Made by a program: the position numbers and the translations under genes | Notes under the pieces: model-generated | Told to the model about the DNA's origin: nothing | What the model saw: only the letters and a program-made list of their open reading frames with translations | Database searches by the model: none | Source: Maritalea sp. | Lineage (GTDB): Bacteria > Pseudomonadota > Alphaproteobacteria > Rhizobiales > Devosiaceae | Reading direction: 5' to 3' | Length of the DNA: 64,000 nucleotides | NCBI RefSeq assembly: GCF_051251695.1 | Contig: NZ_JBPOEU010000013.1 | Location: forward strand, 37,924 to 101,923 | Shown: positions 61,076 to 64,000 of the stretch, piece after piece | Numbering within the stretch: position 1 is the stretch's first letter | Layout: each line of letters begins with the position of its first letter

Positions 61076-61597
61076 TCACCCAAACAAACTCAATTGCGGA
61101 AGCTCGGCGTTATCAACGGCGGGCTTTTCTGCTTTTTTCTTAGGCTTTGGTTTCGACGCTGGTTTCTCAATCGCTTGATTTGGTGTAATTTTTGCCTCTA
61201 GCGATTGAGATGAAATCATCGCCAGCACGTCGGCACTTAAGGTTTCAAGCAATTGCGCATATGCCGCTTTTCCTTGCACGCGAAGCGCTTCACCGCTTTT
61301 ACTTAGGATGAAATGTTTCGCCCGCGCATCGCGCTTGCACGGCTTTACCCGCACCAATTTGCGCTTTTCCAACTTGTCCATCATCGCACTGGCTGAAGCT
61401 TTGTTGACGCCCATAGCGGTTACCAAATCATGCAGATGCTGGCCGTGAAAATCATCAGCCGTGCTAAGTACTTCTTGTTCTTTGATTGCGCTTAAATATT
61501 CGAATTCGCTGTAACTTAGCCCCAGCGTCGAGCCATGTTTCATCCAGTGGCGATGGGCCTGCCGGTGCAGTGTTTCCAAATGATCGGCGATATTCAT
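61076..61597 (-). CDS. MarR-family regulator with a Lys/Pro-rich tail
   Basis: LS.SEFEYL, MGVNKASASAM..KLE.R.LV and DARAK...L...G motifs. Confidence 0.8.
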   Translation of the reverse strand: MNIADHLETLHRQAHRHWMKHGSTLGLSYSEFEYLSAIKEQEVLSTADDFHGQHLHDLVTAMGVNKASASAMMDKLEKRKLVRVKPCKRDARAKHFILSKSGEALRVQGKAAYAQLLETLSADVLAMISSQSLEAKITPNQAIEKPASKPKPKKKAEKPAVDNAELPQLSLFG

Positions 61598-61613
61598 ATG
61601 CAATCCAAAATTT

Positions 61614-61744: not shown

Positions 61745-61969
61745 CTAGCAGCCAATTTTCTTTCGAATTTTTTGAACGTCAGCAAGTGATTTGCAAACAT
61801 TCTCGCAAGGAATTCCATCTCCGTCGCCATCTGCTCTCGGGTGGCTTCCTTCGCACCAGTTTTTAACGGCTTGTTGGCAAGTCGAGTAGCTTTTGCAAGT
61901 GGCAGCCTGGGCTGAGGTTGTGCTTAGAAATAGTGCCAATATGAATGTCGTAAAAATACACTTTTGCAT
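61745..61969 (-). CDS. Secreted Excalibur calcium-binding domain protein
   Basis: Signal peptide; C....TC.......RADGDGDGIPCE motif; RBS AGGAG. Confidence 0.85.
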   Translation of the reverse strand: MQKCIFTTFILALFLSTTSAQAATCKSYSTCQQAVKNWCEGSHPRADGDGDGIPCENVCKSLADVQKIRKKIGC

Positions 61970-62215: not shown

Positions 62216-63430
62216 ATGACCGAAGAATTTCACCGTATACGCAGACTACCCCCTTACGTGTTTGAACATATCAACCCGATCAAGGCGGCGGCGCGAGCGG
62301 CGGGAACGGACATTATAGATCTTGGCATGGGCAATCCAGACTTGCCGACCCCCAAGCACATTGTTGAAAAACTAAAAGAAACCGTGAACGATCCGCGTAC
62401 CCACCGCTATTCGTCGTCTCAGGGCATTCCCGGACTTCGCAAAGCGCAGGCGTCCTATTATGGCCGCCGTTTTGGCGTGAAGCTGGACCCTGACACGCAA
62501 GTTGTCGCCACGCTTGGCTCCAAAGAAGGGTTTGCCAACATGGCGTCGGCCATCACCGCGCCCGGTGATGTGGTGTTGGTGCCTAATCCAACTTATCCCA
62601 TTCACTCATTTGGCTTCATCATGTCTGGCGGCGTAGTTCGTTCTATGCCAGCTGAGCCGAATGAGCACTTCTTTGAGGCGTTAGATCGCTCCGTACGGCA
62701 TTCAATTCCAAAGCCAATCGCGTTGATTTTGAATTATCCATCTAACCCAACAGCCTATGTTGCGGACCTAGATTTCTATAAACGGGTCGTTGAATATTGC
62801 CGCAAGCACGAGATTTTCATCCTGTCGGATCTCGCTTACTCCGAAATCTATTTTGACGGCACACCACCGCCTTCAATTCTAGAAGTGCCCGGCGCTATAG
62901 ACATCGCAGTTGAATTCACATCAATGTCCAAAACATTCTCGATGCCGGGTTGGCGCATGGGATTTGCTGTCGGCAATGAACGTTTGATCAAGGCGTTAAA
63001 ACGCGTGAAATCCTATTTGGATTATGGCGCGTTTACGCCAATTCAAGTCGCCGCCGCCGCCGCTCTTAACGGCCCAGATGATTGCGTTTCTGAAGTGCGC
63101 GAGATTTATCAACATCGCCGCGATGTGCTGGTCGACAGCTTTGCGCGCGCAGGGTGGGACGTCGCACCACCACCGGCAACCATGTTCGCGTGGACCCCAA
63201 TTCCCGAGCAGTTCGCACATTTAGGTTCGCTCGAGTTCGCCAAATTGTTGATCAAAGAGGCAGACGTTGCGGTAGCACCAGGTCTGGGCTTCGGTGAATA
63301 TGGCGACAACTACGTGCGCATCGCCCTAGTAGAAAACGAACAACGCATCCGCCAAGCAGCCCGCAACATCAAAAAATTCATGACTGAGCACGGCAAACGC
63401 GGCGATAATGTCGTGAAAATGAGCAAGTAA
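62216..63430 (+). CDS. PLP-dependent class I aminotransferase (AlaC/YfdZ-like, often annotated LL-DAP aminotransferase)
   Basis: RLPPYVF, DLGMGNPD, NYPSNPT, DLAY and SMSK.FSMPGWRMG motifs; upstream of hom as usual in alphaproteobacteria. Confidence 0.88.
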   Translation: MTEEFHRIRRLPPYVFEHINPIKAAARAAGTDIIDLGMGNPDLPTPKHIVEKLKETVNDPRTHRYSSSQGIPGLRKAQASYYGRRFGVKLDPDTQVVATLGSKEGFANMASAITAPGDVVLVPNPTYPIHSFGFIMSGGVVRSMPAEPNEHFFEALDRSVRHSIPKPIALILNYPSNPTAYVADLDFYKRVVEYCRKHEIFILSDLAYSEIYFDGTPPPSILEVPGAIDIAVEFTSMSKTFSMPGWRMGFAVGNERLIKALKRVKSYLDYGAFTPIQVAAAAALNGPDDCVSEVREIYQHRRDVLVDSFARAGWDVAPPPATMFAWTPIPEQFAHLGSLEFAKLLIKEADVAVAPGLGFGEYGDNYVRIALVENEQRIRQAARNIKKFMTEHGKRGDNVVKMSK

Positions 63431-63456: not shown

Positions 63457-63488
63457 AGGCGTGCGTCTATCGGACGGGTGCCTTTTTT
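63457..63488 (+). terminator. Terminator between the aminotransferase gene and hom
   Basis: Imperfect AGGCGTGCGTC/GACGGGTGCCT stem followed by TTTTT. Confidence 0.6.
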
Positions 63489-63520
63489 ACTTTCACTCCC
63501 AACAATCCCATGCACTACTG

Positions 63521-63551
63521 TTGACGAATAGGACTTTTCCTATTCTATAGG
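63521..63551 (+). promoter_or_regulatory. Sigma70-like promoter of hom with a 20-bp palindrome in the spacer
   Basis: TTGACG (63521-26), then TCTATA at 17 bp or TATAGG at 19 bp; GAATAGGA-CTTT-TCCTATTC at 63526-45. Confidence 0.7.
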
Positions 63552-63578
63552 CGTTTCAACAACAAGAACGTGAAGTTC

Positions 63579-64000
63579 ATGACCGAATTAGACCAGTTTC
63601 GTGACCGTGTAGAGCGCTTTATGGAACGAAATGAGTGGACACCAACCCGCTTTGGCCGGGAGTTGGCGTCTGATCCGCAATTTGTATTCAACCTTCGTGA
63701 AGGGCGCGAGCCTCGCGCCGAAACAAGAAACAAGATTACCGATATGATCAAAACCATCGAAAAACAATCCACAAATGCTAATGCTCCGATACGTATAGGT
63801 GTTGCAGGTGTTGGCACCGTTGGCGCGGCTCTTGTTTCCATTTTGCAAAGCCAGCAAGATGATGTTCAAAAGCGTTTTGGGCGCGATATCGAAGTAACCG
63901 CTGTTTGCGCTCGTTCGCGCTCACGCGATCGCGGCGTCGATATGAGCGAAGTCGAATGGTTCGACGATCCTGTTGCCCTCGCAAAGTCTAGCTCTATCGA
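63579..64000 (+). CDS. hom: Homoserine dehydrogenase with an N-terminal HTH-like domain; 3'-truncated by the window edge
   Basis: Manual translation: MTELDQFRDRVERFMERNEWTPTRFGRELASDPQFVFNLREGREPRAETRNKITDMIKTIEKQSTNANAP-IRIGVAGVGTVG...VTAVCARSRSRDRG...WFDDPVALA. No stop codon before the window end, which is why it is missing from the ORF track. Confidence 0.88.
   Translation, partial: MTELDQFRDRVERFMERNEWTPTRFGRELASDPQFVFNLREGREPRAETRNKITDMIKTIEKQSTNANAPIRIGVAGVGTVGAALVSILQSQQDDVQKRFGRDIEVTAVCARSRSRDRGVDMSEVEWFDDPVALAKSSSI

Follow-up and report, generated by a model that had tools for sequence, protein, structure and literature searches.

Why does a gene for a core biosynthetic enzyme carry a perfect 20-bp palindrome between the two hexamers of its promoter, and which protein would read it? 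The question is raised by hom, the homoserine dehydrogenase gene at the end of a 64,000-nucleotide stretch of Maritalea sp. DNA (contig NZ_JBPOEU010000013.1, positions 37,924 to 101,923 of the forward strand), called the window below and numbered from its first letter. The gene product, Hom, begins with an extension that models as a helix-turn-helix (HTH) domain of the phage Cro type. We estimate a probability of about three in four that the palindrome is the operator of this fused domain, that promoter, operator and domain form a cassette captured from a phage, and that Hom would repress its own gene by occluding the promoter. The features on which the argument turns are given here in window coordinates.

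63521–63526, plus strand: −35 hexamer TTGACG of the hom promoter; TTGAC is invariant across 37 distinct promoters of fused hom genes
63526–63545, no strand assigned: predicted operator palindrome, GAATAGGA-CTTT-TCCTATTC, a perfect inverted repeat
63544–63549, plus strand: TCTATA, the likeliest candidate for the −10 hexamer, at a 17-nt spacing that is kept in 42 of 44 aligned relatives
63546–63551, no strand assigned: TATAGG, an alternative −10 hexamer at 19-nt spacing, seen in the sequence and not conserved among relatives
63579–63776, plus strand: predicted Cro-like four-helix HTH domain, hom codons 1–66, from AlphaFold2, Foldseek and phage homologues
63777–64000, plus strand: variable linker and start of the homoserine dehydrogenase proper, from NF004976, Pfam and a full-length model

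A conserved palindrome in the hom promoter

The arms of the palindrome, GAATAGGA at 63526–63533 and TCCTATTC at 63538–63545, are separated by a 4-nt centre, and the repeat occupies the 17-nt spacer between TTGACG and TCTATA. Its conserved core is ATAGG-N6-CCTAT (63528–63543). TTGACG matches the consensus −35 hexamer at five of six positions, and the start codon of hom, ATG, is at 63579. A preliminary description of this DNA had listed a terminator-like hairpin, TTGACG, a −10 candidate and a palindrome in the spacer, all of which were found, and had proposed that hom has its own promoter with the spacer palindrome as operator for the fused HTH. Every comparative test that could be run agrees with that proposal.

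On its own, the palindrome is not beyond chance. The window contains 33 perfect inverted repeats with 8-bp arms and loops of 0–10 nt, compared with 6–20 in shuffled sequences, and four of the 33 have a 4-nt loop. The palindrome is significant because it is unique in the genome and conserved in register. No second copy with two or fewer mismatches is present in the 3.7-Mb genome, and scans with the 20-bp palindrome, the 16-bp core and TAGG-N6-CCTA gave no convincing second target. A genome-wide scan had been suggested for further copies at thr, met and lys genes; none were found there, and the site is unique to hom.

Upstream of 44 fused loci, an ungapped block is held in register (consensus tccTaTTGACg.aTAGG..a.TTCCTATtca), and the DNA flanking it is unalignable and random. 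Information content in the 37 distinct promoters is 2.0 bits per position for TTGAC, 1.4–2.0 for TAGG, and 1.3–1.8 for TTCCTAT. The hexamer at 17-nt spacing is weakly conserved (0.2–0.9 bits). Named records identify the family as Devosiaceae (Maritalea, Cucumibacter, Pelagibacterium, and Devosia), with Maritalea porphyrae nearest to the window. Among 80 named Devosiaceae loci with a fused hom, 79 have TTGAC-N3-TAGG-N6-CCTAT in register before the gene; in the remaining one, from Maritalea mediterranea, the right arm is degraded. A search of 101 family genomes with the pattern TTGACNNNTAGGNNNNNNCCTA gave exactly one match, at hom, in 69 genomes and two matches in none, and the reversed pattern, used as a control, gave 6 matches.

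Other families, sampled by seven genomes with an unfused hom, gave no instance of the palindrome before that gene. The hom of other families in the order starts at about residue 60–70, and a 68-amino-acid extension is present in all hom genes found in same-family genomes (L001–L021 and one hom in two pieces). The domain was detected in 188 of 201 sampled family genomes; almost all of these have just one copy, and the frames that contain it encode about 505–530 amino acids. With the dyad lying over the core promoter, conserved, and co-occurring with the domain, the element has the sequence properties expected of a repressor operator.

The fused Hom protein

The hom gene extends past the end of the window, and its full frame, read from the genome contig, encodes 504 amino acids, so that the enzyme and the candidate DNA-binding domain lie in a single uninterrupted frame. 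Residues 69–503 match NCBIfam NF004976 with 515 bits, the Pfam matches are NAD_binding_3, Homoserine_dh, and ACT, and the Rossmann motif PIRIGVAGVGTVG begins at residue 70. There is only one hom in the genome, and the domain is likewise single-copy there. By its modelled N-terminal domain, the polypeptide has the architecture of a trigger enzyme, in which an intact enzyme is joined to a domain of a DNA-binding type.

Residues 1–66 model as a Cro/C1-type four-helix HTH. The AlphaFold2 model, built with 62 homologues, is a four-helix bundle (helices 3–18, 22–29, 35–41, and 47–67) with a mean per-residue confidence (pLDDT) of 82.7. It has the compact form of the Cro/C1-type (XRE) fold, with a predicted HTH made from helices 2 and 3. 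The top Foldseek matches in the PDB and a viral library all have a Cro/C1-type HTH (HipB, SinR, P22 c2, CapH, and phage Cro/CI), with template modelling (TM) scores of 0.55–0.76 and probabilities up to 1.0. In a model of full-length Hom, the last helix of the domain continues directly into the first Rossmann strand. Sequence profiles gave a weak PHROG match for the N-terminus (phrog_4779, "transcriptional regulator," E = 1.3e-3). The top Pfam score among the domain homologues was to HTH_26 (E = 0.12), no significant match to a curated HTH model of the HTH_3, HTH_26, or HTH_31 type was obtained, and a PDB profile search with the domain found nothing.

Cross-genus identity is 85% in the HTH core (residues 20–50), 80% in the catalytic domain, and 28% in the linker. 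Strong purifying selection is therefore acting on the domain.

Loss of the domain in one genus

The domain is missing from the whole genome in six species of the genus designated g34, and their Hom starts at the Rossmann fold. All six retain a promoter (TTGACC-N17-TCTAAC or TCTATG), and in five the left arm of the palindrome is destroyed. Both arms are retained in three fused congeners. Taken together, these patterns suggest that the left arm is needed only with the domain, since it was lost in five of the six domain-less species and kept in the fused congeners, and that the right arm overlaps a promoter requirement. The Hom-core tree requires two domain losses in g34, and a single loss is possible. 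The preliminary description had suggested a test of whether only genomes with the fusion have the palindrome; the fused loci, the unfused hom of other families, and this decay after domain loss support a link between the two.

Free-standing homologues in phages

The domain belongs to a family of mostly alphaproteobacterial, unannotated proteins of about 60–75 amino acids, with 529 representatives at E < 1e-3 and 2,289 clusters. The phage evidence is drawn from IMG/VR and from metagenome or prophage contigs; a tblastn search of GenBank phage records gave one weak match only, to Synechococcus phage MinM1. All five free-standing members for which contigs were retrieved are divergent from a Peptidase_S24 (CI/LexA-like) gene and are surrounded by phage early genes (ERF, HNH, and others). 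Homologues were found on 48 viral contigs in a scan of IMG/VR, and 47 of these were examined; in 40, a divergent S24 repressor gene starts 30–150 bp upstream on the opposite strand, which places the homologue in the position of cro. The free-standing homologues are therefore arranged as a phage Cro is, as the first rightward gene, divergent from CI, with operators in the shared intergenic region. The hom copy of the domain has no CI neighbour.

The same half-sites precede the phage genes. TAGG-N6-CCTA occurs exactly before 27 of 42 distinct loci, and before 32 when one mismatch is allowed. In the 150-nt stretches 5′ of the phage genes it reaches 5.0 per kb, versus 0.22 per kb in the remaining DNA of these loci. 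One phage promoter has the layout TTGAAT-gATAGGCAAAATCCTAT-AGAGTG-5 nt-ATG. A Xanthobacter prophage, whose layout agrees base by base with that at hom, has three operators and then CTCTTGAAT-aATAGGCAAAATCCTAT-AGAGTG-cgctc-ATG, for which the counterpart in the window is TTGACG-AATAGGACTTTTCCTAT-TCTATA. Traces of a further operator may be read at hom: most Devosiaceae have a TCCTA directly adjoining TTGAC, matching the right arm of the second phage operator, and two Maritalea genomes retain its left arm instead. The −10 hexamer ends 5–9 nt before the ATG in many phages, as it does (at 6–9 nt) in 22 of 79 Devosiaceae relatives. This short distance supports the 17-nt position for the −10 hexamer and implies a leaderless mRNA.

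On this comparison, the hom promoter, its operator, and the cro-like frame appear to be homologous to the early rightward promoter/operator region found in a set of temperate phages of Alphaproteobacteria. A single capture at the root of Devosiaceae is the most likely origin of the cassette.

Half-sites differ among other phages of the group, which use TCGGA or TGGGA in the same geometry and have changes next to helix 3 of the protein. Four loci (L072, L082, L203, and L204) with the same promoter layout have the operators GTCGGA-N4-TCCGAC, ATGGGA-N4-TCCCAT, and ATGGGC-N4-GCCCAC, and in these loci DQM or DGK replaces DPL just before helix 3. Together, the variant half-sites and helix 3 changes resemble what would be expected if one phage group contained several immunity specificities. 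Homology of the Cro-like family with the N-terminal domain of the S24 repressors was also considered; the profile comparison was not significant (hhalign E = 0.044, probability 1.2%).

Proposed mechanism

We propose that hom became joined, in an ancestor of Devosiaceae, to a cro-like gene of a phage that brought its promoter and operator along. Hom is dimeric or tetrameric in bacteria, so the fusion protein would offer a pair of HTH domains to the dyad, with its half-sites spaced at 11 bp. A Hom dimer on the palindrome would keep RNA polymerase off the promoter and so, in the manner of trigger enzymes, repress the gene that encodes it. The negative sign of this autoregulation, by promoter occlusion, is suggested because the site fills the 17-nt spacer. 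A plausible addition, as pure inference, is that threonine modulates this control by way of the C-terminal ACT domain.

A broader version of this mechanism, which we consider rather unlikely, makes Hom a metabolite-responsive trigger enzyme derived from a domesticated phage Cro that may also act on incoming phages. If it were true, threonine or substrate binding at the enzyme/ACT part would tune occupancy of the captured operator. Hom, by reading the TAGG-N6-CCTA operators of this widespread phage group, might block or bias the early promoter of phages of the same immunity, and phage immunity, or the lysis–lysogeny decision, would then depend on amino-acid status.

Several observations weigh against autorepression by a captured Cro-like domain. 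Residues 1–68 of Hom match no Pfam or NCBIfam model, and the Foldseek E-values are weak (0.02–3). The −10 hexamer TCTATA is weak as well, and the promoter was not called by a simple sigma-70 scan. The right arm, TCCTAT, is intact in three of the six domain-less g34 species and has one mismatch in the other three, so that its conservation may in part serve the promoter itself. The relatives are not independent, as the fusion arose once and the loss occurred once or twice. Finally, phage operators are expected to be common to CI-like and Cro-like proteins, so that in the phages either protein, or both, may read the motif.

Alternative explanations

The domain could bind the palindrome and activate hom, either by a MerR-like distortion of the spacer or by contact with RNA polymerase. 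We regard activation as unlikely. A weak −10 hexamer is typical of activator-dependent promoters, the palindrome lies between the −35 and −10 hexamers as in MerR-type promoters, and a 19-nt spacing to TATAGG can be drawn in this genome, which the preliminary description had likened to MerR-type geometry. That likeness does not extend to the family: MerR-type spacers are 19–20 nt long, whereas the hom spacer is 17 nt in the relatives counted above and 18 nt in the remaining two (L053 and L058), and the 19-nt option is found in this genome only. TATAGG doubles as a third TAGG half-site that is likewise restricted to this genome. The domain is modelled with a Cro/C1-type fold and not with the winged helix and coiled coil of MerR. 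In addition, a site that fills a promoter of optimal spacing normally occludes the polymerase, as in the phage homologues, and the domain-less species retain the promoter, which indicates that it works without the protein.

A second alternative, which seems quite improbable, is that the conserved block is a promoter only, with RNA polymerase contacts and a spacer or extended −10 signal, and that its symmetry is left over from ancestry, with no protein bound to it. The invariance of TTGAC would fit this explanation, as would the right arm, which abuts the −10 hexamer and is mostly kept in domain-less species. The left arm would not. Its TAGG lies in the middle of the spacer, where sigma-70 makes no base-specific contacts, yet its GG is invariant in the 37 distinct promoters and it decays only where the domain has been lost. 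An HTH core that is more constrained than the enzyme also demands a function, and the phage homologues carry two or three palindromes each, the one in the promoter included.

The palindrome could also be bound in trans by a protein other than Hom, such as a CI-type repressor of a prophage or a host regulator, which we find very improbable. The phage operators adjoin an S24 CI-like repressor gene, and an S24 repressor homologue is present in this genome (G000). The one clear CI-like S24 homologue (G000:C36:39247-39915), however, has another type of HTH and lies near a contig end, and no TAGG palindrome was found in its upstream region; the comparison covers this gene, the far stronger of two S24 matches (the other is on contig C28). 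This XRE-HTH/S24 repressor gene is probably part of a prophage or a remnant of one, and its type of operator bears no relation to the hom site. The prophages that were examined in two other Devosiaceae genomes have TGGG/CCCA operators. The 5′ neighbours of hom vary by genus with no regulator gene conserved beside it, and the site tracks the presence and loss of the fused domain.

It is hardly credible that the palindrome works at the RNA level, as an attenuator, stabiliser, or terminator hairpin within a hom transcript that is longer or arises by read-through. It does fold at −9.5 kcal/mol (z = −3.9), but RNA-type covariation is absent: no covariation is seen at the four core pairs, 11–21 of 33 sequences leave the outer pairs unpaired, and the paired fraction is 76.9% versus 75.9% in column shuffles. 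No U tract follows the palindrome, which lies upstream of the inferred start, a leaderless mRNA is expected in 22 of 79 relatives, and an Rfam search gave no match.

Two other classes of promoter were considered for the conserved block and seem not to fit. The distance from TTGAC to CCTAT is 2–3 nt below the alphaproteobacterial heat-shock consensus of RpoH-type sigma factors and too short for promoters of extracytoplasmic function (ECF) sigma factors.

Relation to known systems

In lambdoid phages (lambda, 434, and P22), Cro is a small protein of the Cro/C1 fold that represses its own promoter, which carries palindromic operators in its spacer and −35 region; the gene is divergent from that of CI, a self-cleaving S24 repressor. 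The free-standing homologues resemble this system in having a cro-like gene after an operator-bearing promoter and divergent from an S24 CI gene. In Devosiaceae, by contrast, the cro-like frame is fused to a chromosomal core biosynthetic enzyme, and at hom there are no CI partner and no other phage genes, with one full operator left. The Hom-domain family also differs in that no Pfam model covers it and its sequence shows no detectable resemblance to solved structures.

Trigger enzymes that combine a DNA-binding domain with a catalytic one include PutA (ribbon-helix-helix and proline dehydrogenase), BirA (winged helix and biotin ligase), and NadR (HTH and nicotinamide mononucleotide [NMN] adenylyltransferase). 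Hom would resemble them in joining an N-terminal domain, modelled as a DNA-binding type, to a metabolic enzyme, and in the position of the predicted operator, which lies in the promoter of the enzyme's gene or pathway and suggests feedback by the enzyme. It differs in that its domain and operator would be of recent phage origin and that its sole apparent target is hom. Trigger enzymes and domesticated phage regulators are already known in kind; the novelty would lie in this enzyme, this family of domains, and the acquisition of an entire cassette. In the full-text literature, no description was found of a Hom-HTH fusion, of its operator, or of a DNA-binding homoserine dehydrogenase.

Homoserine dehydrogenase is the branch-point enzyme in the synthesis of threonine, methionine, and isoleucine, and it is controlled allosterically via its ACT domain or by attenuation and separate regulators. 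If the proposed autorepression is correct, a family-wide Hom behind a matching operator would add direct control of the gene by its own product. The locus would then be an exceptionally clear example of a host recruiting a phage cassette in its entirety (promoter, operator, and cro) for a gene of core metabolism, with cassettes of the donor type still seen in present-day phages. A functional name could be offered for an unannotated alphaproteobacterial protein family of about 65 amino acids and more than 2,000 clusters.

Other operator-like sites

The sole one-mismatch match to the operator core, ATGGGAATAGTCCTAT, is on another contig (G000:C60:39140-39155). Its neighbours are a metA-like homoserine O-acyltransferase gene on one side and an esterase-like gene on the other; it overlaps the ribosome-binding site of the latter and is adjoined by an AT-rich palindrome of about 45 nt. 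This match is probably due to chance. A perfect palindrome with the geometry of the hom operator, TTAGGA-GAAA-TCCTAA (G000:C20:105094-105107), lies about 3.2 kb past the end of the window and 3.6 kb downstream of the hom operator, 59 nt 5′ of a 521-amino-acid open reading frame (ORF) without known function. It could be a chance occurrence or a weak second site.

TAGG-N6-CCTA is scarce in the genome as a whole, with 9 copies compared to about 56 expected from base composition, and ATAGGA-N4-TCCTAT with up to two mismatches occurs at about half its frequency in shuffled sequence. The scarcity of TAGG-N6-CCTA likely reflects a general avoidance of words containing TAG; selection against stray operators is an alternative reading.

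In four relatives (L005–L008: Maritalea mobilis, M. myrionectae, M. mediterranea, and Maritalea sp. S77), the half-sites are TGTAGGA/TCCTACA. The 34 nt before the hom ATG in these genomes include a tandem TGTAGGA-TT-TGTAGGA abutting the start codon, and TCCTACA is present upstream of the −35 hexamer. The TGTAGGA repeats could be extra operator half-sites or a mimic of a Shine-Dalgarno sequence.

Neighbouring genes and minor observations

Two further features precede the hom promoter in the window.

62216–63430, plus strand: class I/II aminotransferase gene, the 5′ neighbour of hom; 404-amino-acid ORF ending in TAA
63457–63488, plus strand: hairpin resembling an intrinsic terminator, with a U6 tract, from a terminator scan and RNA folding

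The hairpin itself (63457–63483) has a folding energy of −13.5 kcal/mol (z = −2.83) and is followed by the U6 run, and the terminator scan also reports the feature at 63457–63488. A G+C-rich hairpin and then a U tract 3′ of the aminotransferase gene have the form of an intrinsic terminator, and this terminator-like element would end the aminotransferase transcript. The aminotransferase gene is not kept 5′ of hom in every relative; in two (L012 and L015), its stop codon immediately precedes the hom promoter. Two ORFs on the minus strand lie 5′ of the aminotransferase gene, both classified by eye: a MarR-like regulator (61076–61603) and a cysteine-rich ORF of 74 amino acids with a signal-peptide-like N-terminus (61745–61969).

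Longer proteins also occur among those with the Cro-like domain. Tandem two-domain forms were found among P0029, P0031, and P0156 (about 147–219 amino acids) and P0097 (445 amino acids), and in one case the domain is fused to a long coiled-coil, mitofilin-like protein.
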